From: an uncultured Lentisphaerales bacterium
Lineage (GTDB): Bacteria > Verrucomicrobiota > Lentisphaeria > JABSQK01 > UBA12247
Assembly (NCBI GenBank): GCA_943788985.1
Contig: CALSSJ010000002.1
Coordinates: forward strand, 81,001-145,000
Length of the DNA stretch: 64,000 nt
Reading direction: 5' to 3'
Shown here: positions 9,453 through 46,914 of the stretch, in pieces
How the letters are laid out: the number at the start of each line of letters is the position of its first letter
Numbering within the stretch: position 1 is the stretch's first letter
Notes under the pieces: generated by a model
What the model saw: only the letters and a program-made list of their open reading frames with translations
Told to the model about the DNA's origin: nothing
The model's database searches: none
Position numbers and translations under genes: made by a program

Positions 9453-10745
9453 CTAGCGCCTGCGGCCTGCTTGCCAAGGGATGCGCGTCGCAGCCGCGAG
9501 CGCGCATGCGGGGATGATCGCTAGCACAGCCGTGGAGATGCGTAGTTCTCCGGCGACAGCCCGAACACCGGCAAATATCAGCGGCCCGACCGCGCTGGTC
9601 ATGACCAGCAGAGAATGAAGCTTGCCGTTGATCGCCCCTAACTCTGAACGTCCGAAGCACGCAGGGACGGCAGTGCTCATGATCGGTCCCATGGTTCCCG
9701 TGGTCAAGCCAAGCGTCACCGCCGCCAGCGTGTGCATGCCGGGGCGATCCATGACGGCAAGCGATAGATAGGCGATGGTGGCATTGATGCCCATAAAGGT
9801 CAGCATAGCGCGCGCACCCAGCCGGTCACTCAGCCAGGCCATGGTGAAGCCGGTCGGGATGCTGATGATGGCTACCGGCACAAAGAAGGCCATCGCGGCC
9901 TTGGTCGAGATGCCGCTCTCTGGCCCGATTGACTGGAGATGAAAGGTGTAGCCGGTCAGCACGGTTCCGTGGGCGCAGAGCATCAGCGCGATCACGAGGA
10001 ACTCGAGGCTGCGAACTGCTTCAGTCGCTGGCCGGTCCACGACCGCTGTCTGGGCCGTGGTGGTGGAGCCTTGCTCGCCGTCCACCGATAGGCCGCAGGC
10101 TTCGGGGGTGTCGCGGCAGAAGAGCCAGGCGATCGCCGTGACGCCCAGCCCTAGGACCAACGCCAGGCGGAGCCAGCCGCCATCCCAATCATACAGGTCG
10201 ACCAGGTCAGACATGGCCTTGGGGGCATAGCTGAAGGCCAGGCCGTTTACTACGCCCAAAAGGGCGGCAGCGCGGGCGCGTCGCCGATCGAACCACTTGC
10301 CGACCAGCGTATTGGCGATGATGGGCAGCAAGCCCTGACCGAAGAAGCGCACGCCCAGAAATCCGCAAGCCATAGTCACCATGAAAACAGGGGTTGCGAA
10401 CTCCGCAGCTGGCTTCAGCTGCTGAAGCACCTTGACCAACGTGAATAGGGTCAGGGCCAGACAGGCGGTTGTCATGCAGTAGGCTCGGCGCGCGCCGAGG
10501 CGATCCACTAGCCTGCCTGCGCTCGGCAGGACCAAACCGCTCGTCGCCGTACCGAGCAAGTAGGCAATACTCAGCTGCAGATCTGAGAGGCCGGTTACGG
10601 CGCAGAGGGGCTGGGTAAAGGCCGCGATGCCGGCAGTCTGGCCCGGAAGGCTGGAGAACATTGCCAGGACGGCCAGCAGCAGGATGGCCCACCCGTAATA
10701 AAATGGGACACGTGTTACATCGAACGGTAGCTTGGCCGCAAACAT
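9453..10745 (-). CDS. MFS transporter
   Basis: About 12 hydrophobic segments, motif A GRLVDRLGAR; start MFAAK assumed. Confidence 0.9.
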   Translation of the reverse strand: MFAAKLPFDVTRVPFYYGWAILLLAVLAMFSSLPGQTAGIAAFTQPLCAVTGLSDLQLSIAYLLGTATSGLVLPSAGRLVDRLGARRAYCMTTACLALTLFTLVKVLQQLKPAAEFATPVFMVTMACGFLGVRFFGQGLLPIIANTLVGKWFDRRRARAAALLGVVNGLAFSYAPKAMSDLVDLYDWDGGWLRLALVLGLGVTAIAWLFCRDTPEACGLSVDGEQGSTTTAQTAVVDRPATEAVRSLEFLVIALMLCAHGTVLTGYTFHLQSIGPESGISTKAAMAFFVPVAIISIPTGFTMAWLSDRLGARAMLTFMGINATIAYLSLAVMDRPGMHTLAAVTLGLTTGTMGPIMSTAVPACFGRSELGAINGKLHSLLVMTSAVGPLIFAGVRAVAGELRISTAVLAIIPACALAAATRIPWQAGRRR

Positions 10746-10909
10746 TGCGTCCCCTCGAGGGCTGAAAATACAGCCGGTGGATAAAACCGCATGATACACA
10801 CCTGCGCCACACACTCCATGCTGATTCGTCGCCGGCGGTTGCAATCCAATGCAGGCCGAGCTATGGTGCTATCATAGTTTGCAGGAAGAGCCACCTCAGA
10901 GGAAGGATC

Positions 10910-11206
10910 ATGGATGATCAAGATGAACCAGCCGTAGTATTTACCGGCGGCCCGATTGAGGCTGGCCTTCTGCAGGGCAAACTGGCAGATTCGGAGATTC
11001 GGAGCTTTTTGCACAATGAGTATATGGGGGGTCTCGGAACCACTGCCATTGGTGTGCGGGTCGCTGTCCGAGCACTGGACTTGGCGGCAGCTCTGCCTGT
11101 CGTGAATGCATTCAATGACGCGCGCCTAAATGAGCCTAGCGACACTGAGGACAGCGAGATTGAGGACGGCGATGCCCCTGAGCTTGACGTCGGCGAGCCT
11201 TCCTGA
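10910..11206 (+). CDS. DUF2007-like small protein with acidic tail
   Basis: VFTGGPIEAGLLQGKLADSEIRSFL...GVRVAV pattern. Confidence 0.65.
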   Translation: MDDQDEPAVVFTGGPIEAGLLQGKLADSEIRSFLHNEYMGGLGTTAIGVRVAVRALDLAAALPVVNAFNDARLNEPSDTEDSEIEDGDAPELDVGEPS

Positions 11207-11208
11207 TT

Positions 11209-12479: not shown

Positions 12480-14048
12480 ATGCCTAAAGCCTCTCAGGAA
12501 TTATTCATAACTCGCGAATACTCAGGGTTTTCCCTCGATTTAAGAAACTCTGAAAAGCACCTGCAACAGTTACCAAAACTGGCGCAGACATTTGCGGCTG
12601 TGCATGCGCAGATGCAGTGCATTGAGGCGGGGGATATCAAGAATCCGGACGAAGGCAGGCAAGTTACACACTTTGGGGATCGGGCAGTTTACGCAAGCAG
12701 CGAGCTGTTCGCCGACGTCGAGGCATTTTTTGCAGCTGTGCGCAGCGGTGAACTGCTGTTGAACGGCAAGCGTGTATCTGCCGTGGTCATCAACGGGATC
12801 GGCGGGTCCGCCTTGGGGCCCCAGCTTGCGCAGTTCGCACTTCGCGGTCCGTATTGGAACGAGCTGAGCGCCGAGCAGCGCGACGGAAACCCGAAGCTGT
12901 ACATTCTCGATAACACAGATCCGGCTGGCATCCATGACCTTTGTGCGGTAGCCGACTGGTCCACGACTCTGGTCATTACCATCTCCAAGAGCGGCGGCAC
13001 ACGCGAGCCGCGCAACAACATGTTCGCCCTCCAAGCCATCTACGAGCGCGCAGGCCTGAACTTTGCCGCTCATGCCGGTGCGGTGACCATGGCCGGTAGC
13101 GCGCTCGATCAGCACGCCGAGACGAATGGCTGGCGCAAGCGCTGGCACATGGCTGAGTCCATCGGTGGACGCACCAGCGAAACGGCCGTGGTCGGTCACG
13201 TGCCCGCCGCTGCCGCAGGTATTGATTTTGGTCAGTTGCTCGAGGGGGCAGTCTTGATGGACGAGTGGACGCGCGATCCAGACCCCTATACCAATCCTTC
13301 GTATCTGCTGGCAGCCTCCTGGTACCTCCTCGGCGATGGTCGCGGAGATCGCAACATGGTCGTCCTGCCGTACTCTGACCGTCTAGTGTTGCTGGCGCGC
13401 TATCTTCAGCAGCTCGTGATGGAAAGCGTCGGGAAGGGCACAGATTTGCGCGGCGTGCCAGTCGAGCAAGGGCTTAACGTATTTGGGAACAAGGGCGGGT
13501 CCGATGCCCACGCCTTTGTCCAGCAGTTGCAGGAAGGCCGAGACGATTTCTTCGTGACGTTCGTGGAAGTGCTCGAGGACCCAGCGCACTATAATGCGGA
13601 ACAAGGGCTCAGCATGGCGGACTACCTTCATAACTTCCTCGGTGGGCTGGTAGACGCACTGGCCAGCAAGAACCGTCCGGTGATGACCATTACGATCGAG
13701 GCACTCACGCCTGCCGCACTTGGCATGTTGATTGCTCTCTTTGAGCGTGCGGTTGCCGCTTACGCCGAACTCGTGCAGGTAAACGCCTTTCATCAGCCCG
13801 GCGTCCAAGCCTACAAGCTCGCCAGTGGGGATATGGATGCCTTGGCCCAGGCGCTGCAGAAGCATGTCGCCGCCAATGCCGGGAGCGAAGGCCCGGCTGC
13901 GGAGATCGCAGCCGGACTTGGAGCCGCCCAGGCCGTCGAAGGTGTACTGGCCAAGTGGGCCGTAAACGGGCGCAGCTTTGGTGGCGTGACCGTATCCCGT
14001 AGCTTCGACAACGGCACCTGGATTTACGCTTTCCGCGGAGGGAGTTGA
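12480..14048 (+). CDS. pgi: Glucose-6-phosphate isomerase
   Basis: GIGGSALG, SKSGGT, GGRTS, QQLVMESVGK and NAFHQPGV motifs. Confidence 0.95.
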   Translation: MPKASQELFITREYSGFSLDLRNSEKHLQQLPKLAQTFAAVHAQMQCIEAGDIKNPDEGRQVTHFGDRAVYASSELFADVEAFFAAVRSGELLLNGKRVSAVVINGIGGSALGPQLAQFALRGPYWNELSAEQRDGNPKLYILDNTDPAGIHDLCAVADWSTTLVITISKSGGTREPRNNMFALQAIYERAGLNFAAHAGAVTMAGSALDQHAETNGWRKRWHMAESIGGRTSETAVVGHVPAAAAGIDFGQLLEGAVLMDEWTRDPDPYTNPSYLLAASWYLLGDGRGDRNMVVLPYSDRLVLLARYLQQLVMESVGKGTDLRGVPVEQGLNVFGNKGGSDAHAFVQQLQEGRDDFFVTFVEVLEDPAHYNAEQGLSMADYLHNFLGGLVDALASKNRPVMTITIEALTPAALGMLIALFERAVAAYAELVQVNAFHQPGVQAYKLASGDMDALAQALQKHVAANAGSEGPAAEIAAGLGAAQAVEGVLAKWAVNGRSFGGVTVSRSFDNGTWIYAFRGGS

Positions 14049-15013
14049 TGCGAATCCTGACGGGAGTTCAGCCATCTGGCGATCTTCACATCGGCAATTA
14101 CTTCGGGGCCATGAAGCCATCCATCGACTTACAGGGTCAAGGCCAGACCTTTCTGTTTGTCGCGGACTATCATGCCCTCACGCAGAATCCGGACCCGGAA
14201 TTGTTGCGTGAGCGCGTGCGTGGCGTGGTGCTGGACTGGCTGGCTGCGGGGCTTGCTCCCGAGCAGACGGTTCTCTATCGGCAGTCTGATATTCCTGCGG
14301 TCCAGGAACTCAGCTGGATCCTGTGCTGCTTCACGCCCGTTGGGCTATTGGAGCGCTGTCATAGCTACAAGGACAAGGTCGCGCAAGGCCTGACGCCAAA
14401 CCACGGGCTGTTCACCTATCCGGTGCTGATGGCGGCCGATATACTGCTCTATGACGCGAACGTGGTCCCGGTCGGCAAAGACCAGAAGCAACATCTCGAA
14501 GTCACGCGCGATCTCGCGATCCGGTTCAACAATGCGCACGGAGACATCCTCGTGGTGCCAGAGCCGCGCATTCGCGAAGAACTCGCCACCGTAGCGGGGG
14601 TAGACGGCCGCAAGATGTCCAAGAGCTATGACAACACCATCCCGCTTTTCGGCGCCGAAAAGCAGATTCGCAAAAAGTGCTTCATGAAGATCGTCACCGA
14701 CTCCACGCCGCAGGACGAGCCCAAGAATCCCGATACCTGCAACGTCTTCTCTATCTACAGCCTGTTCGCGAACGAGGACGAGTTGGAAGAGATGCGTGCG
14801 AACTACGCAACGCCCGGCTTTGGCTATGGCCATGCCAAGCAGGCTGCGTTCGAGGCATACTGGGAGTACTTTCGGACGTTCCGCGAACGCCGTGAAGAGC
14901 TTGCCGCCGATCCGGGCTATGTCGACCAGATCCTGGCCCGCGGGACCGAACAGGCCCGTGATATCGCCAGTGGCACCATGGCGCGCGTCCGCAAGGCCGT
15001 AGGGCTGCGATGA
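14048..15013 (+). CDS. trpS: Tryptophan--tRNA ligase
   Basis: HIGN and KMSKS motifs; YPVLMAADIL; VPVGKDQ. Confidence 0.97.
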   Translation: MRILTGVQPSGDLHIGNYFGAMKPSIDLQGQGQTFLFVADYHALTQNPDPELLRERVRGVVLDWLAAGLAPEQTVLYRQSDIPAVQELSWILCCFTPVGLLERCHSYKDKVAQGLTPNHGLFTYPVLMAADILLYDANVVPVGKDQKQHLEVTRDLAIRFNNAHGDILVVPEPRIREELATVAGVDGRKMSKSYDNTIPLFGAEKQIRKKCFMKIVTDSTPQDEPKNPDTCNVFSIYSLFANEDELEEMRANYATPGFGYGHAKQAAFEAYWEYFRTFRERREELAADPGYVDQILARGTEQARDIASGTMARVRKAVGLR

Positions 15014-16916: not shown

Positions 16917-17011
16917 TGATGCTTTCGCGGGTGAGGCACTTCACCGGCTCGCGCGTTGCATCGCAGCTGCGGCCGTCTATATACCGTGAATCGCTGAACC
17001 CGGAGTATTCC

Positions 17012-19699
17012 ATGTACCGCATTCCCTCTGTACTGCTGATCCTGCTGTCCGTCTTCGCGCACAGCGGAGAACAGGAAGACCAGTTCCATTTTGCCGAAGG
17101 CCTGTTTATCCAGCAGGACTACGCCTCCGCGATCGAGGAGTATCGTGTCTACCTGCAAGACTTTCCAACCGGAGAGGCAGCGGCCACCTGCGCGTTTAGA
17201 ATCGGCGAATGCCAGCTCAGGACCGGGGTCCACGAGCAGGCGATCACCGCCTATGAGGCTGCTATCTCGAAGCATGCAAAGGCCGACGGAATTTCCCTCG
17301 CCTGGTACAACCTAGCTCGTTCGCGCTTGGCGCTGAAGAAGTACGCGCCAGCGGCCCAGGCATTCGGCACGGCCGCAGGCCTCGGCGATGCCCGCATCCG
17401 CCCAGAAGCCCTCATTGCCCAAGGCGAATGCCTGCTGCAACTCGAGAAGTTTGCGGAGTCCGCAACCCTCTACGAGACCTTTGTCGCGGAGTTCGCAACC
17501 CACAGCGGACTTGCTGGCGTGCAGTTTTCGCTCGGCTGGTGCTACCAACGGTTGCAACACCCCCAAAAAGCGATTGCCGTGTTGGAAGCCATGCTGAAGA
17601 CCGCGCCTGAAGCGCCGGATGCCCGCCGTGCTCGCTTGGCCCTGTCTGAAGCGTACACCGAGCTGGCGCAGTTCGACAAGGCCGCAGGCGCACTCGAAGG
17701 CGTCGAAGATGCGGACGGCGCTGCCACGCTGCGCCGCGCTTGGATGGAATTCCAAGCAGGCAATAAGGCGGCCTCCTGCGACCTGTTTGTCGCCTACCTG
17801 AGCAAGCATCCGGCCGGGGCCGAGCATCTCTCGGCCCGCTACAATGCTGGTGTGGCAGCCTACGAAGCGCGGCAGTTCGAGCGCGGCCTCACAATTCTCG
17901 GCGAGCTAGCCGCCCAAGCACCCGACAGCAAGGAAGCCGCCGATGCGTCCCTATGGCGTGGACTCTGCGCGTACGAATTGCAGCGCTTTCCGCAGGCGCT
18001 GGCGTGGTTGGAGCCGCTCACGCAAAAGGACGGAGTGGAGCAGCGAGAGAGCCTGTGGTACAGCTATGGCGAGTCGCTTGCGGGCACCAAGCGCCACGCC
18101 GAGGCCATCACCGCTTTCGACCAACTACTTGCGAAGTTCGCAACTGGCAAGTATGCCGCCAACGCTGCCTACTCGCGCGCTTTGTCGCTGGAAGAAAATG
18201 GCCAGGGGAACGAAGCGGTGGCTGCCCTCAAAGCTCTGCTGGAGACATCGCTTCCCGGCGAGCTGCGAAACAAAGCACTCTTTGCCACCAGCGAGTTTCT
18301 GTACCGCCAAGACCGCGCAGCGGATGCCATCAACTACTTGTTGGAATTAGCCCGGGCGGATCAGCCAGACCCGCAGACTCTGTATCGGCTGGGCTGGGCC
18401 GCATTTAAGACGGACCGGTTTCCGCTTTCGGGCGAGCACTTCTCGACCTTGGCCGCCGGCGACGGCGAGTTTGCCAGCGAAAGTTCCTTCATGCTTGGCC
18501 GTATCGCCGAGTCTACCGGCCGCACCGAGGAAGCCGTCGCTGCCTATCAACGCCTGATGAAGCGCAGCGGGGAGGACCCGTTTATCGAGCGCGCCTGGCG
18601 GCGTCTGGCTTACGTCTACAGCGGCGACGCGCTCACCCAGCATCAGACCGCGTACCAAGCGCAGTTCCCGAGCGGGAAGTATGGCGCTGAGCTGGCACTG
18701 CGCCTTGCTGAGGATGCCTTTTCTCTGGGCCAGGTCGATGCGGCACGAGCGGCCTTTACGGAGCTGTTGCCAAGCTTAAAAGACCCCGCCTTACGGCACG
18801 CTGCAGAATACGGCTTGGCCTGGTGCCTCCTGCAACAGGAGCAGCTAGAGGCCGCAGCTGCGATGTTCGCAGAACTCGCCGTGCTCAAGGGCAGTGAATG
18901 GCGACTGGATAGCCTGCTGCAGTGTGGCGAAATTTCCTTTAAGCAGGGCGACCATGTTACAGCGCTCGCTGCTTTTCGTGAGGTTGCCGGTGCCTCCACG
19001 CCGGAATCTGAACGTGCGCAGTACATGACAGGCTGGGTCCAGCGCGAACGCGGCGAACATGCAGCCGCGGCTAAGGCTTTTCGCGCCGTGCCAGAGCGTT
19101 TCCCAAACGGAGTCCTGCGCATCGAAGCAATGGTGCGCGCTGCGGAGGCGTACCTGGCCGCAGATCAGGCGCAGGCTGGCGCCGACCTGCTGCTGAGCAT
19201 TGCGGGGGGCGAGCGCGACGAGAGCGTCTGGCATGCCTTGGATGACTGCTTCGTGGCACTCGCGCGCTGGCAGGACGTGATCGAGCACAGCGCCCTGCTG
19301 CTGGAGGCCTATCCAGACTCGAAGCAAGCCTACCTGGCCTACTTCCGCCGGGGGCTGGCGCGGAAGGCGCTGGGTATCCACGCCGAAGCGATCGCGGACT
19401 TCAAGGCTACGATCGCCCACACCGACACTCGCCCGGCGGCTCAAGCACAGTTCAACATCGGCTCTGTGTTGCTGGCGCAAGGACAGCCAGACCGCGCCGC
19501 CAGGCAGTTCCTACGGGTCGAGATGCTCTTCGACTATCCCGATCTGTCGCCGCGGGCCTTGTATCACGCGGTCGATGCCTTTGTCCAGGCTGGCCCGGAT
19601 CACGCCAAGCGTGCCACGCTCTACGCGGCCAAGCTACGCGAGAAGTATCCAGACTCAGAGTGGGTGCCCAAGCTTGACGCATTGCAGGTGGCAAAGTGA
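17012..19699 (+). CDS. Large exported TPR protein (CpoB/BamD-like repeats)
   Basis: Signal peptide from ATG 17012 (GGAG RBS); about 895 aa of TPR repeats; stop overlaps the exbB start. Confidence 0.85.
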   Translation: MYRIPSVLLILLSVFAHSGEQEDQFHFAEGLFIQQDYASAIEEYRVYLQDFPTGEAAATCAFRIGECQLRTGVHEQAITAYEAAISKHAKADGISLAWYNLARSRLALKKYAPAAQAFGTAAGLGDARIRPEALIAQGECLLQLEKFAESATLYETFVAEFATHSGLAGVQFSLGWCYQRLQHPQKAIAVLEAMLKTAPEAPDARRARLALSEAYTELAQFDKAAGALEGVEDADGAATLRRAWMEFQAGNKAASCDLFVAYLSKHPAGAEHLSARYNAGVAAYEARQFERGLTILGELAAQAPDSKEAADASLWRGLCAYELQRFPQALAWLEPLTQKDGVEQRESLWYSYGESLAGTKRHAEAITAFDQLLAKFATGKYAANAAYSRALSLEENGQGNEAVAALKALLETSLPGELRNKALFATSEFLYRQDRAADAINYLLELARADQPDPQTLYRLGWAAFKTDRFPLSGEHFSTLAAGDGEFASESSFMLGRIAESTGRTEEAVAAYQRLMKRSGEDPFIERAWRRLAYVYSGDALTQHQTAYQAQFPSGKYGAELALRLAEDAFSLGQVDAARAAFTELLPSLKDPALRHAAEYGLAWCLLQQEQLEAAAAMFAELAVLKGSEWRLDSLLQCGEISFKQGDHVTALAAFREVAGASTPESERAQYMTGWVQRERGEHAAAAKAFRAVPERFPNGVLRIEAMVRAAEAYLAADQAQAGADLLLSIAGGERDESVWHALDDCFVALARWQDVIEHSALLLEAYPDSKQAYLAYFRRGLARKALGIHAEAIADFKATIAHTDTRPAAQAQFNIGSVLLAQGQPDRAARQFLRVEMLFDYPDLSPRALYHAVDAFVQAGPDHAKRATLYAAKLREKYPDSEWVPKLDALQVAK

Positions 19700-22385: not shown

Positions 22386-23399
22386 ATGGACACCCTAACG
22401 GACACACTTTGCCGGCCATTGCGCGACCTCCGTGTTTCACTGATCGATGCCTGCAATCTGCGCTGTCGCTATTGCATGCCCACCGAACAATTCAGCCCCG
22501 ACCACCGCTTTCTGCGACCGGCTGAACGTCTCTCAGACGAAGAAGTGCTGCGCTTCATCCGTATTTTTGTGGAATGTGGAGTTAGCAAAATCAGACTGAC
22601 CGGTGGCGAACCGCTGCTGCGCCCGGGCGTCGCCCAGCTCATTGGCCGCATTCGCGAGATTCCCGGGATTACGGACATCGCACTGACCACTAACGGCGTG
22701 CACCTTGCTAAGTTCGCAGCGGCGCTGCGCGAGGCTGGCGTGGATCGCCTGACGATCAGCCTGGATGCGGTTAACCGGGCCACGCTAGCCCGGCTAGCCG
22801 GGCGAGCAGTGGACCCAAAGGCCATTCTGGACGGTGCAATTGCGGCCCGCGACGTGGGCTTCCAGCAAACCAAGATCAATATGGTGGCCATGCGCGGCTG
22901 GAATGAAGATCACATCCTACCGCTGGCCGAGCTAGGACGTGAACACGACTTCATCGTGCGTTTCATTGAGTACATGGACGTGGGCACCATGAATCAGTGG
23001 CAGCGGGAGGACGTCATCCCCGCGCGCGAGATTCATGACCTGATTCACGAGCGATATCCACTCGAGCCCGCAGACCCGCTCTACCGGGGCGAAGTGGCCC
23101 GGCGCTACCGCTATCTGGATGGCGGCGGCGAGATTGGGCTGATCTCATCTGTGACCGAGCCCTTCTGCCATGAATGCAGCCGCGCCAGAATCAGCGCTGA
23201 CGGCTTCCTGTTTACCTGCCTGTTCGGCACCTCTGGGCTTGATCTGCGCACGTTGATGCTGGCCGGGGCCGATGATAGCGAACTCCGCAAAACAGTAGAG
23301 TCGCACTGGCAGGCACGGACCGATCGCTATTCAGCAGACCGCCTGCAGTTGAAGGGCCAGACCACCGGCAAGGTGGAGATGTACCATATCGGCGGTTGA
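22386..23399 (+). CDS. moaA: GTP 3',8-cyclase (molybdopterin biosynthesis)
   Basis: CNLRCRYC radical-SAM motif, LTGGEPLLR, FCHECSRAR, C-terminal IGG. Confidence 0.96.
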   Translation: MDTLTDTLCRPLRDLRVSLIDACNLRCRYCMPTEQFSPDHRFLRPAERLSDEEVLRFIRIFVECGVSKIRLTGGEPLLRPGVAQLIGRIREIPGITDIALTTNGVHLAKFAAALREAGVDRLTISLDAVNRATLARLAGRAVDPKAILDGAIAARDVGFQQTKINMVAMRGWNEDHILPLAELGREHDFIVRFIEYMDVGTMNQWQREDVIPAREIHDLIHERYPLEPADPLYRGEVARRYRYLDGGGEIGLISSVTEPFCHECSRARISADGFLFTCLFGTSGLDLRTLMLAGADDSELRKTVESHWQARTDRYSADRLQLKGQTTGKVEMYHIGG

Positions 23400-24645: not shown

Positions 24646-24679
24646 CCGAGGTTTTGCGGATTTCGCAAAAACGCGCCTG

Positions 24680-24882: not shown

Positions 24883-24989
24883 AGGCGCAATACGTTGCCG
24901 AGCGCACGATCTGGCAAGATTGTGTCGTGATCCTCCGGACGCTGGTGCTGATTGTGCGGAGTTCGCAAACCCCGTCTTCGTGATCGCTG

Positions 24990-26372: not shown

Positions 26373-26521
26373 GGCAAAAACTTGAACTGAGGGCCTGGTG
26401 CGTAAAACAAGAACCGTACGTCGATGCGAACAGTCGGCAACGACTGGTGTCAACGTTGAGTGATCGGCCCTCAAGCGCGCAGGCAAGTATCACTGTCCCT
26501 TGCCCCTGCCCCCAGGCAAGG

Positions 26522-30900: not shown

Positions 30901-33295
30901 CGACCACTTCGCGCTCCACCGGCTGCGGGGCCTCGGGCTCTGCGACCGCCGCACTCTCGGTGGTTGCGATCTCGGCACTCACCTCCTGCTCGACGATCTC
31001 TTCGCCGGCGGTGACCGTCATGATGGTCACGATTTCCTCGGTCGGCTCTTCGCGGGGCGAGGATTTAGGCAGCACGACAAACAGGAGTAATGCATGCACT
31101 GCCACGGAGGCCAGCACGAAGCGCGCGCGTTCATTGCCGCGAACCGCATGGATTAGCAGCGCGAGCAGGGCCAGAACGATCAGCAGCCAGGCCAGCCACC
31201 AGAGTACGTTCCAGCCGCTGTCTGCGGCCTTGGCCTCCGCCAGCGGCGGCGCGGCTACGCGTGTTTGCCGCGAGACCTCGACCGAGAGCGGAACACGCAC
31301 TGGCATCAGTCCATCTGCCTGGGCGACAATCTCGGTCGCCAGCTGTTCGCTCGGCAACGGGCGTTCCAAGCGCCAGACAAACGGCGTGGTCTGCCAATCT
31401 GCTGTTGTGGCTAGGCTGGCGGTCTCGAACTCCAGGCCTGCGGCCGGAGAGCGAAGCGACGCCGCGGCGGCTCCCTCCGGATCTAGTCGCAGCTCGGCGA
31501 TGCCCGCGACCCGCACTTCGTGTTCGCCCTCGGCCACTGTGACCGCACTTAGCCGCAGCAGAAGTTGCGGAGTTCGCACTTCGCCGTGAAACGGAACCTG
31601 CCAGGATTTTCCCGCGAAGTTGATCGATACCGTCCCTTCAAATGGCCCGGCCTCGGTCTGCTCGGTGGCGGCAATGAGGGAGAGCCGGCTCGTGGCAGTG
31701 CCCGCCAGATCGCCCTCCGCGCGCACCGTCACGTGCGGCGGGGGCTGGATGGAGAGCGTGGCCGCGTCGCCTGCGCTACCTCCGTACAACTGAATCTCGA
31801 GGTCTGCCTTTTGTGGCACGCCCGCGTAAAGCGGGGCGAAGGTGACCACCTTGGGCTCGGCCAGCATGCTCGCTTCCAAACCGGCTGCGGTGGCATCGAG
31901 CGCCAGCTTTGCCGGCGCAATGTCGCCAGCGACCGCTCGCTCGGCCAGCCGGGCCGGGCGGAAACTGCGGGCTCTGGGCCCGCCGCTCGCTGCTGCCGGC
32001 CCTGTTACGACCGGGCGCACTGCACCTTGCAGCGAGATTAGATCGGTTCGCACCAGCGGTTGGTCGTCCAAGGCTGCTTTTGCGGAGAGCGCAAACCGCT
32101 GCATACGGGCCTGCTGCGTGGGCGAGAAGCGCATCAGGCCAGGGACGGGCGTAGGGAGTGGGGGCAACGTGGAGTCGTGGGATAGTGCCGTCGCCACGAT
32201 GGTGGCCGTGCCGTCGAAATCACCGCGCAGCCAGGCGCAGAAGCCATCGGCCAGCGTGACCACCCGCAGCGTGATATCGGTGGAGGCAATGAGTTCGTAG
32301 GTTGGGGCCTCGCCCAGCCCTGGTGAGAGCGTGTTGCGGCCGCGTTGAAATGTGGTGAGATTCTCAGCACCATTGAGTCGCGGGGCACCGCCGCTGACCT
32401 GCAGCAGCGGCTGGCGCATACTGTCGTCGAGCCACAGTTCCGTCTCTGCCGCGAGGAAGCCGCGTGCTGCGACTTGGCGGCGATCGATGCGATGAAAAAC
32501 ATCCCGAAACAGCGCGGGCAAGGCGTCGGCATCGGGTGCCTGCACATGCATGCCGCCGGTCTTTTTCGCAATCCGGGCCATCAGCGATTGGTCGACTTCT
32601 GCGCTTAGGCCGATGGTGAATACCGGGGTCTCGCGCAGGCTCTCGTGGGCCTCGCGGTAGGCGCGATGGGGGCGCCCGTCTGAGAACAGCAGAATTGCCC
32701 GGCGGTTGCCGGTTTCCAGGCCGTCGAGCATGCGCGCTGCCGCGGCAAGCGGCAGGTCGAAGTCGGTCGAGCCGCGTGGGCGGAGCGCCCGCACCATGCT
32801 CGCGACATCTGGGCAGTCCTGCGGCGCTACCGGCACTTGGATGACTTCTGGCTCATCGCGAAAGCTCACCACCCCGACGTGCTGGATCCGGCGGCTCTGC
32901 CGCGCCAGGTCCAGGAACTCCTGCAGCGCCCGCAGTCTTGCGTTGTCGGGGTCGTGCTTGCGCATGCTGTGTGAGCTGTCGATGAGAGCGACCAAGTCAT
33001 AGCGTTCTTTGCGAAACTCGTGCTCTGCTGTTATTGGCACGGATTTCCCGGCGGCCAGCAGCGAGACTGGGAAGGTCCCAGATTTGCGGAGTTCGCAACG
33101 CGCTACGATCAAGCGGCGGCCGTTACGCTCGCTCAGGATCGCTGCTGGAAAGCGTTGAGGCAGCTCAGAGCCGACGATCAACTCGCCAGCCTCGAGGGCG
33201 GCCACGGCGGCGGGTGCCTGGGCTTCGAACCAGAAGGTTTCGCTGGCTGAGACCGTGGCCACTAACAGTACGGTAAGGAGAATGCGCATATTCAT
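27985..33295 (-). CDS. Giant vWA / 2 TM / Ala-rich repeat / DUF4159 protein, split by a 1-nt insertion near 30177
   Basis: ORF 30008-33295: signal peptide, MIDAS LIDSSHSM, GSTDF, LFSDG, TM pair. ORF 27985-30573: LEYGGDWD, PFLFMSGH, YLAQGGCLWINDS, QMGINIV (DUF4159-like). The same repeat continues across the two frames. Confidence 0.75.
29350..30345 (-). repeat. Intragenic tandem repeat, about 5 copies of 201 bp (67 aa)
   Basis: Anchor GTGCGAACTCCGCAA at 29463, 29664, 29865, 30066 and 30268 (periods 201, 201, 201, 202). Confidence 0.92.
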
Positions 33296-34539: not shown

Positions 34540-34977
34540 TCAGCCGCAGGTGAGGACCAGACGCTCATAGACGGTCTGGCCGCCGTGGTGGAGGCAATCG
34601 TGGCTCAGGGCGCAGCCGTGATCATTGGCGATCTGGATGCGTATCCCAGTGGTTGCGGAGTCCGCAAGCCAGGGTGCTATCTCGCGCTCGAAGAGGGCGC
34701 GGAGGGTGCCGGACAGGCCTTTAAGGAGGCGGTGCGGAGTTCGCAAATCCGGCAGTAGGTCACTGAGCGATTGGGCTTCGCCGCCGGGGATGTGGTGGTA
34801 GGCAATGCCATGCGTGGCATAGAATTCGGTCGGGTCCTGATCGGTCCCGAGGCGCTGACCCAGGCCGGCGGTGGTTGCGGTGGGCCCTGGCAGGCGGGCA
34901 ATGCGCAGCTCGCCGGGAGGTAGATCAGTGATCGCGAGCCAGACGTCTACGGGCACAGCATTGAGGATCAGCAGCAC
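34540..34977 (-). CDS. Hypothetical protein
   Basis: 145-aa ORF filling the gap with plausible composition; no recognisable motif. Confidence 0.45.
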   Translation of the reverse strand: MLLILNAVPVDVWLAITDLPPGELRIARLPGPTATTAGLGQRLGTDQDPTEFYATHGIAYHHIPGGEAQSLSDLLPDLRTPHRLLKGLSGTLRALFEREIAPWLADSATTGIRIQIANDHGCALSHDCLHHGGQTVYERLVLTCG

Positions 34978-38358: not shown

Positions 38359-38941
38359 GTGAGATCTCTTATGCCTTCCTAAAAAGGGCTACTGATTACC
38401 AGTCTTCGTCGGAAACTCGAGAAATTTGGCGGCGCTTCGTTTCGTTTTCCGGCCTCAACCATACTGGGTAACGTGCGCACACCTGCTGCCGTGATGGGAG
38501 TAGTTCACTCGTTTTTCGTCGCCTCCAGCAAGCCTTTCTGCTCCAGGAACTGGCCTATTTCATGCGTGATGGCGTCAAGATGTAGACCGGAGCCAAAGCC
38601 CTCCTTGATCTAGTTTCGCAATGGAATCCCGGATATTTTGAGCGCTGCGACAAAGCTCTGGCCGTTGCGCTCTTCGCGTCTCGATTCCGGCTTGTCGGTG
38701 TAGGCGGCTTCGTCCAGCAGCCCAGACGACGTGGCACGTCACGACTTACCGTTCTTTCCCAACCCGAAAACCAAAACCATCGCAATCAAATGCAACTTAT
38801 TTCGCCGTCGCATCAGTAGGCCGGGAAGGTCCCGTATTGGCGGAGTTCGCACCGCGATGGGGACGATGTCTTGCGTCGCCGCCTTGAGCGCCTCCACGCA
38901 TGCGCACCCTACTACCTCCCCTTCTTGAGCATGGTTCGGAC

Positions 38942-39389: not shown

Positions 39390-39944
39390 ATGGAACAATT
39401 TATAACGCTCATGTTTGCTGGCGGTCTGGCTGCTTGGTTACTTCCTGGCTGCGGGCAACCTGCGGAGCCGGCTGCTACGAGCGAGGCGGGAAAAGCACCT
39501 GCCGCGACTGCTTTGCCCTATCACCAGGTGATCGAAGCGGAGTCCGCAACGGTGGCTGATGGCGATTTTGCGGAATTCGCAACCCCTGGGGCATCGGCTG
39601 GCGCTTGTCTGCGGATTGCGCCGAGTGCGGAGAAAAAGGCGTTTGGCGGATCTGCGGAGTTCGCAATTGAGCTGCCGAAGGCGCAGCAGGTGAGTATCTG
39701 GTTTCGGACGAGGTGGGGTGGGACGTGTGCGAATTCGTTCGAGCTGGTGGCACCGGCCGGGCCGCTGCAGTTGATTGGGGAGGATGGAACTTATGGGGCT
39801 TGGCACTGGGTCAAAGGATCGCGGCTGCCGCTGGCGGCTGGAAAGAATGTGTTTGTAATGAAACCGCGGGAGCCGGATGTGCAGATTGATCAGATCGTGG
39901 TGACCGCCGATGAGGGCTTTGTACCGATGGGAGTGGAGCAATGA
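39390..39944 (+). CDS. Lipoprotein with a carbohydrate-binding-module-like beta-sandwich
   Basis: Lipobox LPGC; IEAES...WHWV...LAAGKN...REPDVQIDQIVVT. Confidence 0.7.
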   Translation: MEQFITLMFAGGLAAWLLPGCGQPAEPAATSEAGKAPAATALPYHQVIEAESATVADGDFAEFATPGASAGACLRIAPSAEKKAFGGSAEFAIELPKAQQVSIWFRTRWGGTCANSFELVAPAGPLQLIGEDGTYGAWHWVKGSRLPLAAGKNVFVMKPREPDVQIDQIVVTADEGFVPMGVEQ

Positions 39945-41106: not shown

Positions 41107-42390
41107 GTGTTTGAACTCTTGGAACGGTCCACCGAGCAGCGCCATGCACTCCTGGTGGCCGTCTGCCCCCAGCAGTCTACGGTAGAGCATGCGAACGAAA
41201 TGCTCGACGAACTTGCCGAGCTTGCCGAAACGTACGGTGCCGAGGCATCGGCACGCCGTGTGATCCGCCTGAGTAAACCTCAGGCGAGGTACCTGATCGG
41301 CTCCGGAAATGCGGATTCGATCGTGGAGCAATGTCGAGAGCAGAAACTCGATATGATCATTTTTGACGACGAGCTCTCGCCGTCCCAGCAGCGAAACTGG
41401 GAGAAGTTGGCCGAGATCCCGGTGGTCGATCGCCACGAGGTTATTCTGGGAATTTTTGGTCGCCGGGCTCGGACGCGCGAGGCCAAGCTGCAGGTTCAGC
41501 TGGCCCAGTCCGAGTACTCTCTGCCACGCTTGAAAAATGCCTGGACACATTTGTCCCGTCAGCAGGGCGGTGTGGGGATTCGCGGCGGCGAAGGTGAGAA
41601 GCAGATCGAGCTGGACGGGAGAATGGTCAGGCATCGCATTACGCATCTCAAGCGGGAGCTGGAGGAGCTGAAGAAGCATCGCGCAGAGCAACGCAAGAAG
41701 CGCACGCAGCAACCGATTCCCTCGGCAGCAATTGTTGGCTACACGAATGCGGGAAAATCTTCGCTGTTGAACAAGCTGACGCAGGCGGATGCTTTTGTCG
41801 AGAATAAGCTGTTCGCGACGCTGGACCCGACGACGCGGCGGCTCGCCCTGCCGAATAATCAGACGTTGCTGTTGACGGACACGGTCGGATTCATCCGCAA
41901 GCTGCCGCATGACTTGGTCGAATCGTTTAAGTCGACGCTGGAGTCTGCAGCTGATGCAGAATTTCTGATTCACGTGGTGGATATCACCAGTGCGCATGCC
42001 GAAGACCACATCCGGACGACGGAAGAGGTGCTCGAGGAGATTGGCGCGGGTGAGCACTACCGGGTGCTGGTCTTCAACAAGGTGGATGCGATCGAGGATG
42101 AGTTTCTGCTGTCGCGCTTTCGTCGGCGTCATCCGGAGGCGTTCTTCATCTCGGTGCATGCGGGGGATGGGCTGGAGGTGCTGGTGGAAGAGCTGGCAGA
42201 GGTGTTGGCCCAGAAGATGGGGACCATGGAATTGCGGATTCCGCAAGCGCGCTACGACGTCGTGGCCTCGGTGCATCGCACAAGCCAGGTGCTGAAGGAA
42301 ACGTATGACGACGATGGCACGGTGCTGCTCGAAGCCGTGGTGCCGGATCGAAGTCGCTACGAATATGCGGAGTTCGTGGCCGGTGACTGA
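41107..42390 (+). CDS. hflX: Ribosome-splitting GTPase HflX
   Basis: GYTNAGKSS, LFATLDPT, DTVGFI and NKVD motifs. Confidence 0.96.
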   Translation: MFELLERSTEQRHALLVAVCPQQSTVEHANEMLDELAELAETYGAEASARRVIRLSKPQARYLIGSGNADSIVEQCREQKLDMIIFDDELSPSQQRNWEKLAEIPVVDRHEVILGIFGRRARTREAKLQVQLAQSEYSLPRLKNAWTHLSRQQGGVGIRGGEGEKQIELDGRMVRHRITHLKRELEELKKHRAEQRKKRTQQPIPSAAIVGYTNAGKSSLLNKLTQADAFVENKLFATLDPTTRRLALPNNQTLLLTDTVGFIRKLPHDLVESFKSTLESAADAEFLIHVVDITSAHAEDHIRTTEEVLEEIGAGEHYRVLVFNKVDAIEDEFLLSRFRRRHPEAFFISVHAGDGLEVLVEELAEVLAQKMGTMELRIPQARYDVVASVHRTSQVLKETYDDDGTVLLEAVVPDRSRYEYAEFVAGD

Positions 42391-43066: not shown

Positions 43067-43111
43067 TGAGGTGGATAGCAGCCTTGTCCCGGCGCTATGT
43101 GCAGCGTCTCT

Positions 43112-44059
43112 CTACGTTTGCTCTCGTAAACAGCGCAAGCTGAACAACTTGCCGCCTTCTGGAAGCTCGCCGGTGCCATATCGTCGTTGCTTCGCCCGGT
43201 CTTCGCCGTACATCTCCGTCGCAACCTGCTGTACGAACAACTTGGAGCCGATTACGGCGCCATCTGTCCAATACCGAACACGACGCGAAGCCACCAACTG
43301 GATGGCTGGCTTTCGCTTCGCCTCGTCGTAGGCGGCCTTCACCGTATCACCCGTTGCGTCCTTTCGTGCAGCTTCCATCGTTCGGGCAATATCGGCCCGT
43401 AGCTCGTCTGCGACCTCCGCAACACTCCAGTGCCTAGCGCGCTCACCCAGGGAGCACTTGACGTATTTAAAGAACGCCCGTCCAAAGGGGTGCTTTCCTG
43501 AGCCGTTCCAGACACCCCAGCTGCAGAATCGATAGTCGGCGGGGTTCTCGACAATTCCGGCACGAACCGAGTTCAATTCGATGTACTTAATGCATGTCCA
43601 CAACGAAGCTTTTCCATCCAATAGCACGCTTTTGAAGCGATCAGCCCAGAGCCGACCGCGACGTGTGATCTTGCGCGTCCGATTGAACCAGATCGTGAAG
43701 CTCTGTTGTAGGTCACGAACCATGCAACTGAAGTCGATCATCCGTGCTCGGATCTCCTCAATATCGGGGACCTCTGCGTCGATCTGGCGTTTGCCCTCGT
43801 AGTAGCTGTTATAGCGGCGAACCGCCTCCTCCTCGCTCGGCAACGCACACGGCACATGAATCACTGCGTGCCAATGATTGCTCATTACCGTGTAGCTGAC
43901 TACCTCCACTGTGTAAAAGCGCTGCACTTTGTGCAGCAGCTTGACGAACATCTCCTGCTCGACAGGTCCGAACGGTCGATCCTGATGCGTGCCCGCCGTC
44001 CGATTCATTACGTGGTAGAATGCTCCACCACCTCGGTATTTGATGCGTGCAATTCTCAT
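43112..44059 (-). mobile_element. RAYT-type (REP-associated) Y1 HUH transposase
   Basis: FYHVMNR, VMSNHWH (HUH), LWADRFKS and YIELNSVRAGIV..PADYRFCS motifs. Confidence 0.88.
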
Positions 44060-44147
44060 TCCTTGGGTCTTCCCTATTGACCTTTACTCATTTCCTAAGT
44101 TATCCTCATCCCTGACTAAATCCATTCCTATTTTGTAATTAAAACCA

Positions 44148-44177
44148 TGTCCCTTAAAAGTTTGTCCCTTAAAAGTT
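44148..44177 (+). repeat. Perfect 15-bp tandem duplication upstream of the transposase
   Basis: TGTCCCTTAAAAGTT twice in direct succession. Confidence 0.9.
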
Positions 44178-44583: not shown

Positions 44584-44813
44584 AGCTCGGCCTGTTCGAC
44601 GACCAATGCAAGAGCTTATCGCTCAACCAACTCACGGTTTTCTCTCCAGATTCCCCGCTCTGCGGCTTCGAGTTGACGGGTTTCCGCTGCTTGGAGAAAC
44701 TCTCGCAATGCCTCCCGGACTAGAGCCGAACGGCTCTTGGATTGCTAACGCTTAATACAGGCATCCAATGCTAGCAGTATTGGCGTTTCAATAGTAATTG
44801 CAATGGTTTTCAT
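44580..44813 (-). pseudogene. Ribbon-helix-helix antitoxin with two in-frame stops
   Basis: MKTIAITIETPILLALDACIKR*QSKSRSALVREALREFL...RELVER*ALALVVEQAEL*; the final TGA overlaps the toxin GTG. Confidence 0.82.
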
Positions 44814-44940
44814 ATTGTAGCTGTATTGACTAATGAGGAGATTTGCAAGGTTTTTACTTGCTTGGGATCCAGGCATCCAGGCATAGGCGGGGCAAAAGCA
44901 GGCGCAACCCAATGCGTCGTCCCTACCCCTATTTAGGTGC

Positions 44941-46914
44941 TCAGCGGGGAGGCGCGCCGGGGAATTGTTGGGGATCGGGTGTGTGCAGTTGCCCGTAGAG
45001 GGCTTTGAGGCGGACACGGATGGTCTCGGCGGGGGCAAGCTGATAGGCGCGTTCGAGGACACGACAGGCTTGCTGGTACAGGCCTTGCTGATAGTACATG
45101 ACGGAGGCGTCGCCGAGGAGGGAGGTGTCGTCGGGGGTAAGGGCAAGGGCTTTCTCGAAGTGAAACCGGGCTTTGGCTGGATCGGGCATGGTCTGGACGT
45201 AAACCATGCCGACGCGCCGGTGGCCGATGGAAGCAAAGAGGGGGTTAGGGTGCTCGGTAGTTGCTTTGTGAGCAGCGAGGTAGAGGTCGGTGTTCTTGGC
45301 CTCCCAAGCCCTGTCGGCCATGACTTGGAGGTTGTTGCGCGCGTTCTCGCTGGTGGACGTGAAGGCAAAGCAGCGTTTGAAGGCGGCGATGGATTCGGGG
45401 TAGCGCTGGTCTTCGTAGTAAGCGTTAGCCAGACCAAACCAGGCTGGGCCATATGCGGGGTAGAGTTCGACGGAGCGTTCGAGGCAGGTATAGGCATCGT
45501 CGAGCCAGACGCGCTTCTGGTCTGCAGACTCCGCAGACTCGGCCGCGGCGATGAGTGCGGCTCCGGCGATCATCTGCATGCGGGCGCTATTGGTGGAGAC
45601 GTGGCGATCGGCCATGGCAAGGGTGAAATCGTCGCGCCAATTGAGGGTGCGGGCAAAGGTGAGGCCGGCGAAGAGGACGGCTACGAGGATGGCAAGGGCG
45701 ACGCCGAGCTTGCGGTTGTTTGCGGAGTTCGCAGCGAGTATGCGGCTGAGCCCGAGGGCTGCGATCATCGCAAAGCCGAGCGATGGGATGTAGACGAACC
45801 GCTCGCTCATAAAGGCGCCGATGGGAAAGACGAGGTTGGAGACGAGAACGAAGGTGAGCGCATAGAAGGCGATGGCACCGGGAATGATTTTTTGGCCCGC
45901 GCGCAGGAGGACGATGGCGGTGCCAATGAGGCTGGCGTGGAGGGCGGTGGAGAACAGGGCGCGGAGGTCGCCCAAGTTTAGGATTGGGATGTGGAAGGGG
46001 TAGTAGTCGTGGGTAAGCGGATAGGGGAGGACGAGTAGCTTGAGGTAGATGAGCCAGGTGTAGGCGACGGTGGCGAAGCGCTGGCCGGTGGAGGCGTGCA
46101 GAAAGGGGTCGTTCATGATGTCTTGGTGCTCGATGCTCTCGGGGATGCCGAGGATAGCGAGGCGCAGGGCGACGTAGGCGATGCTGGCGAGCAGTATCGG
46201 AAGGGCGACGCGAATGGCTTCGCCGCGAGTCTTCACGCGGCCGCAAAGGTAGAGCAGGAGGGGGCCGGCAACGACGAACGAAACGGGGGTTTCTTTGGCC
46301 AGCAGGGCGAGAAAGAGGACGCAGCCGGAGCCGATGGACCACCAGTGCGAAGATTTGCGGAGTCCGCAAACCGCAAGCGCTAGGGCGGATAGGGCGAGGA
46401 GTAGGCAGAGGAGTTCGTCGCGACTTTTGATGTTTGCGACGACTTCGGTGTGAAGTGGGTGAAGGGCAAAGACGGCGGCGGTGAGAAAGGGCCAGGAGCG
46501 CCACCAACTGCCGCTCGTCTGGGTGGCGAAGAGCCAGTAGATCAGCAGAATGGTGAGGGCGTAGAGCAGGACGTTACTGGCGTGCTGAAGGTGAGGCAGG
46601 GCCGCGGAGTTGCCGAAGAGTTGGGATTCGATGGCGAAGGTTGCGAGGGTGAGGGGGCGGTAGCGCCCACCGGAAACGCGATTGCGCTCGCTGCCAAAGT
46701 AGCCGGTGAAGAGTTCGGTGGTGAAGATGTCGGGCAGCCCGGAAAAGCCTTGGGCGGTGAAGGTGTTGCCGGTGATGTAGATCTTGTCGTCCATGGCGTA
46801 GCCGAAGGTGACGCTGATCCCATAGAGGGCGAGAGTGCCGAGCACCAGGACAAGACAGGGGACCCGGTGCAGGCGCAGCCACGGCGGGCTAGCTGAGCGC
46901 TTGCGTTTTTTCAT
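44941..46914 (-). CDS. TMTC-like GT-C membrane glycosyltransferase with C-terminal TPRs
   Basis: MDD, YRPL, HPLHTEVVANI, KE and ERFVYIPS motifs, followed by TPRs. Confidence 0.85.
   Translation of the reverse strand: MKKRKRSASPPWLRLHRVPCLVLVLGTLALYGISVTFGYAMDDKIYITGNTFTAQGFSGLPDIFTTELFTGYFGSERNRVSGGRYRPLTLATFAIESQLFGNSAALPHLQHASNVLLYALTILLIYWLFATQTSGSWWRSWPFLTAAVFALHPLHTEVVANIKSRDELLCLLLALSALALAVCGLRKSSHWWSIGSGCVLFLALLAKETPVSFVVAGPLLLYLCGRVKTRGEAIRVALPILLASIAYVALRLAILGIPESIEHQDIMNDPFLHASTGQRFATVAYTWLIYLKLLVLPYPLTHDYYPFHIPILNLGDLRALFSTALHASLIGTAIVLLRAGQKIIPGAIAFYALTFVLVSNLVFPIGAFMSERFVYIPSLGFAMIAALGLSRILAANSANNRKLGVALAILVAVLFAGLTFARTLNWRDDFTLAMADRHVSTNSARMQMIAGAALIAAAESAESADQKRVWLDDAYTCLERSVELYPAYGPAWFGLANAYYEDQRYPESIAAFKRCFAFTSTSENARNNLQVMADRAWEAKNTDLYLAAHKATTEHPNPLFASIGHRRVGMVYVQTMPDPAKARFHFEKALALTPDDTSLLGDASVMYYQQGLYQQACRVLERAYQLAPAETIRVRLKALYGQLHTPDPQQFPGAPPR

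Follow-up and report, generated by a model that had tools for sequence, protein, structure and literature searches.

What does a 15–base pair (bp) near-palindrome that recurs throughout one stretch of bacterial DNA mark: a local, centromere-like locus or a word that is dispersed over the genome? The question is raised by 64,000 nucleotides (nt) from an uncultured Lentisphaerales bacterium (GenBank assembly GCA_943788985.1, contig CALSSJ010000002.1, positions 81,001 to 145,000; the whole of this stretch is hereafter called the window), in which the core GCGGAGTYCGC of the word TTGCGGAGTYCGCAA is found 21 times when both strands are counted. The original prediction read these copies as a region-restricted cluster of sites for a chromosome-organizing protein, similar to parS or matS, and named as its alternative a genome-wide repeat like HIP1 (highly iterated palindrome 1) or DUS (DNA uptake sequence). 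It is the alternative that fits the data. The word is very probably a genome-dispersed and clade-wide highly iterated palindrome of the HIP1/uptake-sequence class, not a local centromere-like cluster.

The word in the window

The 21 copies of the core, each of which matches GCGGAGTYCGC at the position originally listed, correspond to 17 independent sites, since five lie within a single tandem array. Dinucleotide shuffling of the window predicted 0.14 core copies, far below one per 64 kb as had been estimated by hand, and none of 100 shuffles attained 21. The codon-preserving shuffle that the original prediction had called for leaves the enrichment standing: when synonymous codons were shuffled with the proteins preserved (54 open reading frames, or ORFs; 200 shuffles), the mean was 1.5 core copies and the maximum 6. 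Markov models of orders 1 to 5 predicted 0.15 to 1.0 copies; order 6 predicted 4.1, but that model already holds the motif’s own 7-mers. With up to two mismatches allowed, the 15-mer gave 49 strand-matches versus 0.47 expected, at 37 places, or at 33 when the tandem array is collapsed. The looser pattern TGCG-N5-CGCA matched 38 times versus 3.9 expected, and all 12 variants listed earlier were recovered among these matches. The commonest 10-mers and 12-mers of the window are subwords of the motif. Thus, the enrichment survives all nulls that were run. The independent sites are distributed as 4 with no mismatch, 17 with one, and 12 with two. Since the counts are weighted to the consensus and the specificity per site is far beyond what locating a site would need, they suggest a drive toward the consensus rather than threshold binding.

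Core sites (coordinates in the window, strand, description):
10394..10408, − strand: core, T variant; sense in MFS transporter ORF 9453-10844; AEFA
17451..17465, + strand: exact copy, C variant (perfect 7-1-7 palindrome); in TPR ORF 16910-19699; AESA
17484..17498, + strand: core, T variant; in TPR ORF 16910-19699, 33 bp past the 17451 copy; AEFA
23276..23290, − strand: core, T variant; antisense in moaA 22356-23399; SELRK
24954..24968, + strand: core, T variant; in truncated sugar-transferase ORF 24506-25012
25349..25363, + strand: core, T variant; antisense in thrC 24990-26486; ANSA
29463..30282, − strand: five cores, T variant, one per unit of the 201-bp tandem array 29343-30331; one independent event
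30448..30462, + strand: core, T variant; antisense in overlapping ORFs 27985-30573 and 30008-33295
31565..31579, + strand: core, T variant; antisense in VWA ORF 30008-33295; LRTPQ-like
33084..33098, + strand: exact 15-mer, T variant; antisense in VWA ORF 30008-33295; CELRK
34653..34667, + strand: exact 15-mer, C variant; antisense in ORF 34540-34977, which has no family match
34732..34746, + strand: core, T variant; in ORF 34540-34977
38838..38852, + strand: core, T variant; in ORF 38797-39192, without family support, may be noncoding
39535..39549, + strand: core, C variant; sense in ORF 39390-39944; AESA
39652..39666, + strand: core, T variant; in ORF 39390-39944; AEFA
45720..45734, + strand: core, T variant; antisense in TPR ORF 44941-46914; ANSA
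46355..46369, + strand: exact 15-mer, C variant; antisense in TPR ORF 44941-46914; CGLRK

Degenerate copies (a dot marks sites that read on either strand or carry no strand):
367..381, − strand: 1 mismatch
5670..5684, − strand: 2 mismatches
12826..12840, + strand: 2 mismatches
13340..13354, + strand: 2 mismatches
14796..14810, − strand: 2 mismatches; within trpS
18129..18143, + strand: 1 mismatch; both half-sites of the A/T type
24356..24370, − strand: 2 mismatches; in truncated DegT ORF
24654..24668, + strand: 1 mismatch, centre T
28968..28982, dot: 2 mismatches, either strand
30430..30444, − strand: 1 mismatch
32080..32094, + strand: 2 mismatches
39568..39582, + strand: 1 mismatch, centre A; 33 bp past 39535
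42232..42246, dot: 1 mismatch; perfect palindrome with A/T centre; hflX 3′ end
43408..43422, − strand: 2 mismatches; in Y1 transposase-like ORF
51179..51193, dot: 2 mismatches
61565..61579, − strand: 1 mismatch, centre A/T

When sites were aligned on the motif strand, the conserved unit was K-TT-GCGGAGTYCGC-AA only (~16 bp), and the third base ahead of the core was G or T at 17 of 17 independent sites. No conservation beyond these flanks was detected among the window sites or among 89 core sites from related loci in other genomes (see below). The absence of conserved flanks points to a ~16-bp word and not to a longer mobile or copy-and-paste element. A C at the variable position makes the 15-mer a perfect 7-1-7 palindrome, TTGCGGA-S-TCCGCAA, and a T leaves one of the arms imperfect. 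The independent sites of the window comprise 13 T variants and 4 C variants, whereas the perfect palindrome predominates outside the window (59 C versus 30 T at the 89 core sites), and the difference in preference is significant (Fisher P = 0.002). The mirror-image variant, with the centre C and a T, is represented by a single window site, at 16757. The rarity of this mirror-image variant marks the T form as a preferred word rather than a product of symmetric decay. The lineage of the window thus has a “dialect” of its own, in which GAGTTC replaces GAGTCC.

All 21 core copies lie within ORFs of the gene list used in our analysis, on both strands and in all three frames, and none is extragenic; 12 of the 17 independent sites are in codon frame 0, GCG/GAG/TYC/GCA or its complement. 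The peptides read at core sites are AEFA/AESA, ANSA/ADSA, and LRTPQ-like and CxLRK-like strings, in agreement with the AEFA, AESA, ANSA, LRTP, ELRK, and CGLRK named earlier, as is the use of different frames and strands. As in words of the HIP1 class, the location is intragenic whatever the frame or strand, without an explanation at the peptide or RNA level. The claim that some copies sit in pseudogene or noncoding DNA is borne out only partly: 24654 and 24954 are in an ORF matching only positions 2 to 67 of the 179-position Bac_transf profile, and 38838 is in an ORF that has no family match and is possibly noncoding. Altogether, three motif-bearing ORFs are without family support (34540-34977, 38797-39192, and 39390-39944).

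The motif regions of ThrC and MoaA align without gaps to homologues of solved structure (several for ThrC, one sequence for MoaA) and fall at variable protein positions. The word therefore arose by base substitution, and an origin as a five-codon, 15-bp insertion is ruled out by these alignments. Among 120 ThrC homologues (P0001-P0120, a set that includes the cluster of the window’s own ThrC), tetra- and pentapeptides encoded by the motif occur 24 times versus 2 for 14 scrambled controls. They recur in different lineages at ThrC positions ~150 (CGVR/CGLR), ~340 (AEFA, ANSA, and ADSA), and ~392 to 404 (ADSA), and some homologues carry ANSA, ADSA, or TNSA in the column occupied by the motif in the window’s ThrC. 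Nine of the occurrences are CGVR at one position; this peptide and the conserved surroundings of EFA may belong to the protein itself. The recurrence is only suggestive: it could reflect recurrent or conserved motif sites or merely a protein context compatible with the motif.

The local density peak described in the original prediction is real for the core, since all 17 independent core sites are found within 36 kb of the window (P = 0.0008 under uniform placement). Degenerate copies span positions 367 to 61579 and reach both window ends, and the 28 kb outside the peak contain 4 of them versus ~0.2 expected, which is ~20 times chance. Overall, there is one site per 1.9 to 3.8 kb, the core alone giving one per 3.8 kb. 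Two pairs of sites are exactly 33 bp apart (17451/17484 and 39535/39568), a C-variant core being followed by a T-type copy in each; the DNA between the members of the two pairs is unrelated. Close pairs were not significantly enriched in the window (P = 0.07 to 0.40), and regular spacing is absent, so the close-pair signal was dropped.

Spread of the word in other genomes

A strict 16-mer was scanned against a collection of genomes from 185,579 species; all counts below are among the 112 matches listed, and the taxon names of the scanned metagenome-assembled genomes (MAGs) are the depositors’ labels. Forty-eight of the matches are in MAGs labeled Lentisphaeria/Lentisphaerae, Victivallales, Kiritimatiellota, Verrucomicrobiota, or Opitutae, with a G+C content (GC) of 35 to 71%. 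These labels belong to the Planctomycetes-Verrucomicrobia-Chlamydiae (PVC) group. The 48 include one match each in a Pirellulaceae MAG, a Phycisphaerales MAG, and Lentisphaera marina, and no extra site was present in the DNA fetched for these three. The remaining 64 matches are singletons of unrelated phyla or copies of unrelated repeats. The assemblies with multiple matches listed were as follows:

MVZH01: at least 7 matches on at least 7 contigs
JAYEIY01: at least 7 matches on at least 5 contigs; 35% GC
JBMCIU01: at least 4 matches on at least 4 contigs
JAADHN01: at least 4 matches on at least 3 contigs, one of them 151 kb
Three further assemblies: at least 3 matches each on at least 3 contigs each
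Four further assemblies: at least 2 matches each on at least 2 contigs each

As is typical of the HIP1 class, the word is thus common to a deep clade, with at least 11 assemblies of 35 to 71% GC having at least two matches listed. About 1,110 chance matches are expected in the collection; if the 64 unrelated matches are a fair sample of them, those listed would be, by a rough estimate, ~6% of all. It follows that the assemblies with 7 to 9 listed matches would hold ~100 or more strict 16-mer matches each, a rough figure that assumes an unbiased order of the matches.

The loci around the matches were then searched for sites with up to two mismatches, and one seed per locus was subtracted. In 34 PVC-labeled loci (405,869 bp), 49 extra sites were found, or one per 8.3 kb. 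In contrast, 46 other loci longer than 2 kb (746,995 bp) contained 3 extra sites, or one per 249 kb, which is about the null prediction. Seed-corrected densities calculated by hand from site counts in two other assemblies were about one per 6 to 8 kb, and the core density of the window is within about twofold of theirs. No DNA similarity between the window and the fetched loci was detected by blastn, so the matches listed do not include the source genome. In the 35% GC MAG, the exact GC-rich 15-mer occurs three times in a 175-bp span inside a U32 peptidase gene adjoining dnaG and is also present in the 5′ parts of two divergent genes.

The original prediction had proposed plotting the sites against GC skew and looking for positional clustering in relatives. 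Among 71 core sites of related loci, 34 are co-oriented and 37 anti-oriented with respect to local GC skew, and 34 are sense and 37 antisense with respect to the longest covering ORF. As shown above, the word is spread over many contigs of these relatives. Since orientation is unrelated to skew or to ORF strand, the word is neither polar nor an RNA signal.

Two sets of matches outside the PVC group belong to repeats of other kinds. In Reyranella MAGs (L006, L029, L044, L055, L084, and L108) and an “Asaia” MAG (L034 and L036), the 16-mer lies at the tip of a perfect palindrome of 31 bp, and a second hairpin comes after it, the two together making up a multicopy alphaproteobacterial element similar to repetitive extragenic palindromic (REP) sequences or miniature inverted-repeat transposable elements. 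The exact identity of the 16-mer there is probably a coincidence aided by palindromy. In an Acidoferrales MAG (L004 and L039), the match is located in a 1.1-kb sequence that two megabase-sized contigs share at 99.9% identity, a repeated element unrelated to the PVC word.

Candidate functions and rival explanations

Dispersion of the word, rather than local clustering, is the reading that we prefer. According to this model, a short recognition word would be installed in ordinary genes through point substitutions at places where the encoded protein can bear them, and it would be common to a deep PVC branch (MAGs labeled Lentisphaeria, Kiritimatiellota, and Verrucomicrobiota). The candidate reader would be a two-fold symmetric protein acting on duplex DNA, which is plausible because a perfect 7-1-7 palindrome predominates outside the window and the sites are nonpolar. 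The abundance of the word might be upheld because DNA bearing it is favored when relatives exchange DNA through uptake and/or recombination. This is suggested by a per-site specificity that exceeds what marking would need, by the existence of a dialect, and by the analogy with HIP1. That the word is read on duplex DNA by such a protein and kept through favored exchange, with its own dialect here, is a possibility that we put forward tentatively. The enrichment, the origin by substitution, the spread over contigs and lineages, the nonpolarity, and the dialect are observed, whereas the reader protein and the tie to DNA exchange are inferred. A bolder version, to which we give somewhat less credence, is that this would be an undescribed 15-bp “self” word of Lentisphaeria/Kiritimatiellia at 35 to 71% GC, a clade-level uptake/recombination signal with dialects and a conserved reader protein.

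HIP1 is the closest parallel. It is an intragenic palindrome found throughout a phylum, with a density that fluctuates over 10 to 90 kb (PMC5861425); it raises transformation efficiency (bioRxiv 10.1101/2024.09.10.611283) and is now hypothesized to be a DNA-uptake recognition sequence at the phylum level (PMC13756078); its role is debated there between chromosome structure and uptake/recombination (PMC5861425, PMC13756078, and bioRxiv 10.1101/2024.09.10.611283). Like HIP1 (GCGATCGC, cyanobacteria), the PVC word is a palindrome hugely overrepresented against composition-aware nulls, intragenic in any frame, spread over a clade of phylum scale, and variable in density over tens of kilobases. It differs in sequence, phylum, and layout (15 to 16 bp in a 7-1-7 arrangement versus 8 bp), in its lower density (one per 2 to 8 kb), in that no cognate methylases have been identified, and in the preference of one lineage for an asymmetric variant. 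The PVC word should thus be seen as analogous to HIP1 rather than as HIP1 itself, since the sequence differs, no methylase domain was seen in the window, and GANTC pentamers are ordinary.

In Neisseria and Haemophilus, DNA bearing an uptake sequence is favored in exchange. The DUS of Neisseriaceae and the uptake signal sequence (USS) of Pasteurellaceae are nonpalindromic, conserved at the family level, and present about once per kilobase, and the uptake bias has been demonstrated experimentally. These, too, are near-exact words of at least 10 nt, built by substitution in coding DNA, found in both orientations, and having lineage dialects one base apart. The PVC word is palindromic, more deeply conserved, and sparser.

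Several points weigh against this assignment. For the source organism itself, we infer genome-wide spread from its relatives, and the bunching of the 17 independent core sites inside the window is significant. The window is also ~2 to 4 times denser than related loci, and because the source genome is seen in a 64-kb window, a local cluster may sit on top of a genome-wide background. The clade assignment rests on depositors’ labels, and contigs of fragmented MAGs could be neighbors. A density of one site per 2 to 8 kb is below the value of about one per kilobase for DUS, USS, and HIP1, and the known uptake sequences are nonpalindromic and conserved only at the family level. The identity of the 15-mer over genomes of 35 to 71% GC would call for a very conserved, perhaps housekeeping, reader, and no competence, methylase, or reader gene was tied to the motif. 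Where conservation of individual sites could be compared, one exact site is common to two loci that are 91.7% identical, a level at which a run of 15 bases would stay intact in 27% of cases anyway, and the degenerate trpS site is not shared by a distant locus of the 35% GC MAG (n = 1).

As the main rival explanation, a dispersed, clade-wide word could instead be bound by a conserved protein that structures the nucleoid or chromosome and be kept for chromosome folding, a role that Xu et al. reportedly proposed for HIP1. The predominance of the perfect palindrome in relatives and the nonpolarity of the sites would both suit a symmetric dimer on duplex DNA, and identity over so wide a GC range suggests a slowly evolving housekeeping reader. 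The variation in density over tens of kilobases in the window is also comparable to the 10- to 90-kb periodicity of HIP1 (PMC5861425). However, hundreds of near-exact 15-bp sites would carry information far above structural need, a symmetric dimer should disfavor the asymmetric T variant preferred in the window (13 of 17), the sites are neither regularly spaced nor significantly paired, and no candidate protein was found; we consider this explanation rather unlikely. The region-restricted counterpart, a noncanonical parS/matS-like array that loads or anchors a partition or organizing protein at the locus, would account for the concentration of core sites in 36 kb and for the higher density of the window relative to related loci, and the palindromic form and number of sites resemble the multi-parS clusters of some bacteria. 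It is contradicted by the degenerate copies at both window ends and by the relatives, which bear the word at window-like density on many contigs of distantly related genomes (at least 7 in one assembly), with extra copies in most loci of 4 to 20 kb and, by the rough estimate above, perhaps ~100 or more strict matches in single assemblies. Wherever it could be applied, the refuting condition named with the original prediction, a genome-wide distribution, thus goes against the local reading. In the window, canonical parS is at chance (one match at 3 mismatches versus 0.96 expected), DnaA boxes form no cluster (10 scattered single-mismatch matches versus 6.1 expected), and no ParA/ParB domain was detected among the 62 ORFs scanned. 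The original prediction was right that the motif differs from canonical parS, to which it is unrelated in sequence, and its parS/matS reading is quite improbable.

Comparison with known organizing sites leads in the same direction. Some bacteria have ~20 clustered parS copies, and parS is likewise a palindrome of similar length suited to a symmetric dimer; the PVC word has an odd rather than an even centre, an unrelated sequence, many more copies, and many contigs in relatives, and its window lacks parAB and origin features. Sites of Noc, SlmA, and MatP number tens per genome (about one per 35 to 100 kb), are more degenerate, and are confined to narrow taxa. They share with the PVC word the form of short intragenic palindromes with dimeric readers, the MatP site also being odd-centred, but the PVC word is 10 to 50 times denser and almost invariant. 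matS occurs about once per tens of kilobases in the terminus domain of enterobacteria and vibrios, whereas here one site per 1.9 to 3.8 kb was found in a PVC-like organism.

Three further explanations concern DNA modification, mobility, and polarity. The word could be a functionless by-product of sequence-specific methylation combined with biased mismatch repair. The C variant has a GANTC site in its middle (GAGTC/GACTC), the T variant of the window corresponds to a C-to-T change at the C of this pentamer, and HIP1 likewise embeds methylase sites and is recognized by two methylases (PMC13756078). Yet GANTC pentamers are neither depleted nor unusual (observed/expected ratio for GAGTC of 0.76 to 0.99 in the window and related loci), none of the 62 window ORFs showed a DNA methyltransferase domain, and the mirror-image product that symmetric deamination would leave is rare. 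No repair system is known to recognize 15 bp. Such an origin is improbable, and a link to GANTC methylation was dropped given the ordinary pentamer frequencies. A REP-like hairpin element, mobilized or bound on single-stranded DNA by a Y1 transposase of the REP-associated tyrosine transposase (RAYT) type, is suggested by the Y1/IS200-like ORF 43112-44059 in the window, by the 31-bp hairpin element of the Reyranella MAGs that the 16-mer tips, and by the fold of the C variant (−6.9 to −7.0 kcal/mol, z about −4.7). However, REPs are extragenic, longer, and spread as units, while the PVC word, although also an abundant short palindrome, is intragenic at 21 of 21 core sites, arose by substitution without indels, has unconserved flanks, and shows no bias to the replication-skew strand. 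Neither the word nor REP-like inverted repeats flank the Y1 gene. The T variant, which the window favors, forms only a weak fold (−4.5 kcal/mol, z −1.6), and this argues against any hairpin function in this genome. The REP/RAYT reading is largely refuted and very improbable. Last, a polar word of the KOPS (FtsK orienting polar sequence) or Chi type, directing a translocase or recombinase by replication direction, might be read from the 10 of 13 independent T-variant sites of the window that are on the + strand and from the sites past 30.4 kb, which all occupy the + strand in a part of positive GC skew. The excess of 10 in 13 does not reach significance (P = 0.09), the related loci are evenly divided with respect to skew, and a near-palindrome can hold little polarity, so a polar function is extremely improbable.

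If the word is genome- and clade-wide, as we favor, it would be another lineage-wide DNA word embedded in genes, beside DUS/USS and HIP1, and the first in the PVC group; if it does serve uptake or recombination, the PVC group would be the first to join Neisseriaceae and Pasteurellaceae (and, as hypothesized, cyanobacteria) in having such a system. Because the word is longer and more exact than HIP1 and conspicuous even at 35% GC, its reader should be findable by phylogenetic profiling or pull-down. It would provide a test of DNA exchange versus chromosome structure as the purpose of such words, could serve as a lineage marker in MAG binning, and could account for, or help to overcome, the poor genetic tractability of PVC bacteria, much as the addition of methylated HIP1 sites improved cyanobacterial transformation. 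Literature searches with motif strings returned only unrelated primer lists, no paper joining “highly iterated palindrome” with Verrucomicrobia was found, and keyword searches on iterated palindromes or on uptake sequences among PVC bacteria gave nothing relevant. The HIP survey of Elhai 2015 (PMC4390886) mentions none of Verrucomicrobia, Lentisphaerae, and Planctomycetes.

Genes and neighboring features of the window

The window carries housekeeping and PVC-typical genes (trpS, pgi, gcvT, moaA, thrC, hflX, trkAH, lpxC-fabZ-lpxA, and a sulfatase gene) and encodes DUF1559 pilin-like, BatA-like VWA, DUF4159, and DUF58 proteins. The only structured RNA found with Rfam and ARAGORN was a tRNA-Leu. 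The best named relatives of the window’s ThrC are a Verrucomicrobiota MAG (64% identity) and Lentisphaerae, Kiritimatiellales, Kiritimatiellaceae, and Pontiella MAGs (61%), and the relatives at 61 to 64% include the motif-bearing assembly with matches on seven contigs; one odd “Rhodothermales” MAG has a ThrC that is 66% identical. By this measure, the source resembles Kiritimatiellia or Lentisphaeria more than planctomycetes, and none of its named relatives is close. The thrC ORF 24990-26486 encodes 498 amino acids (aa) from a TTG start, and its N terminus extends ~38 residues beyond those of the 455- to 465-aa homologues; the true start is probably further downstream.

Two ORFs between the tRNA-Leu and thrC appear to be gene remnants. 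The DegT aminotransferase ORF (23634-25012 region) matches only positions 14 to 271 of a 360-position profile, and the sugar-transferase ORF 24506-25012 has the partial Bac_transf match given above. Together, they hold three copies of the motif, at 24356, 24654, and 24954.

The tandem array 29343-30331 consists of 4.9 units of 201 bp, except that one unit is 202 bp long (30066 to 30268). Within the array, ORFs 27985-30573 (DUF4159) and 30008-33295 (VWA, BatA-like) overlap by 565 bp, and the codon frame of the motif passes from the DUF4159 ORF to the VWA ORF at the 202-bp unit. The region 27985-33295 resembles a single long gene whose frame moves by +1 inside the array, through a frameshift, pseudogene formation, or a sequencing error.

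The Y1/IS200-like ORF 43112-44059 encodes 315 aa (Pfam E = 1.5e-7); with the NCBIfam model for REP-associated tyrosine transposases it reaches 53 bits, short of the cutoff of 80. Upstream of it lies a gene-poor gap of 880 bp with a 15-bp tandem repeat at 44139-44177. Between lpxC and lpxA, where a single-domain FabZ is expected, ORF 52083-53018 encodes a protein of 311 aa with two FabA-like hotdog stretches.

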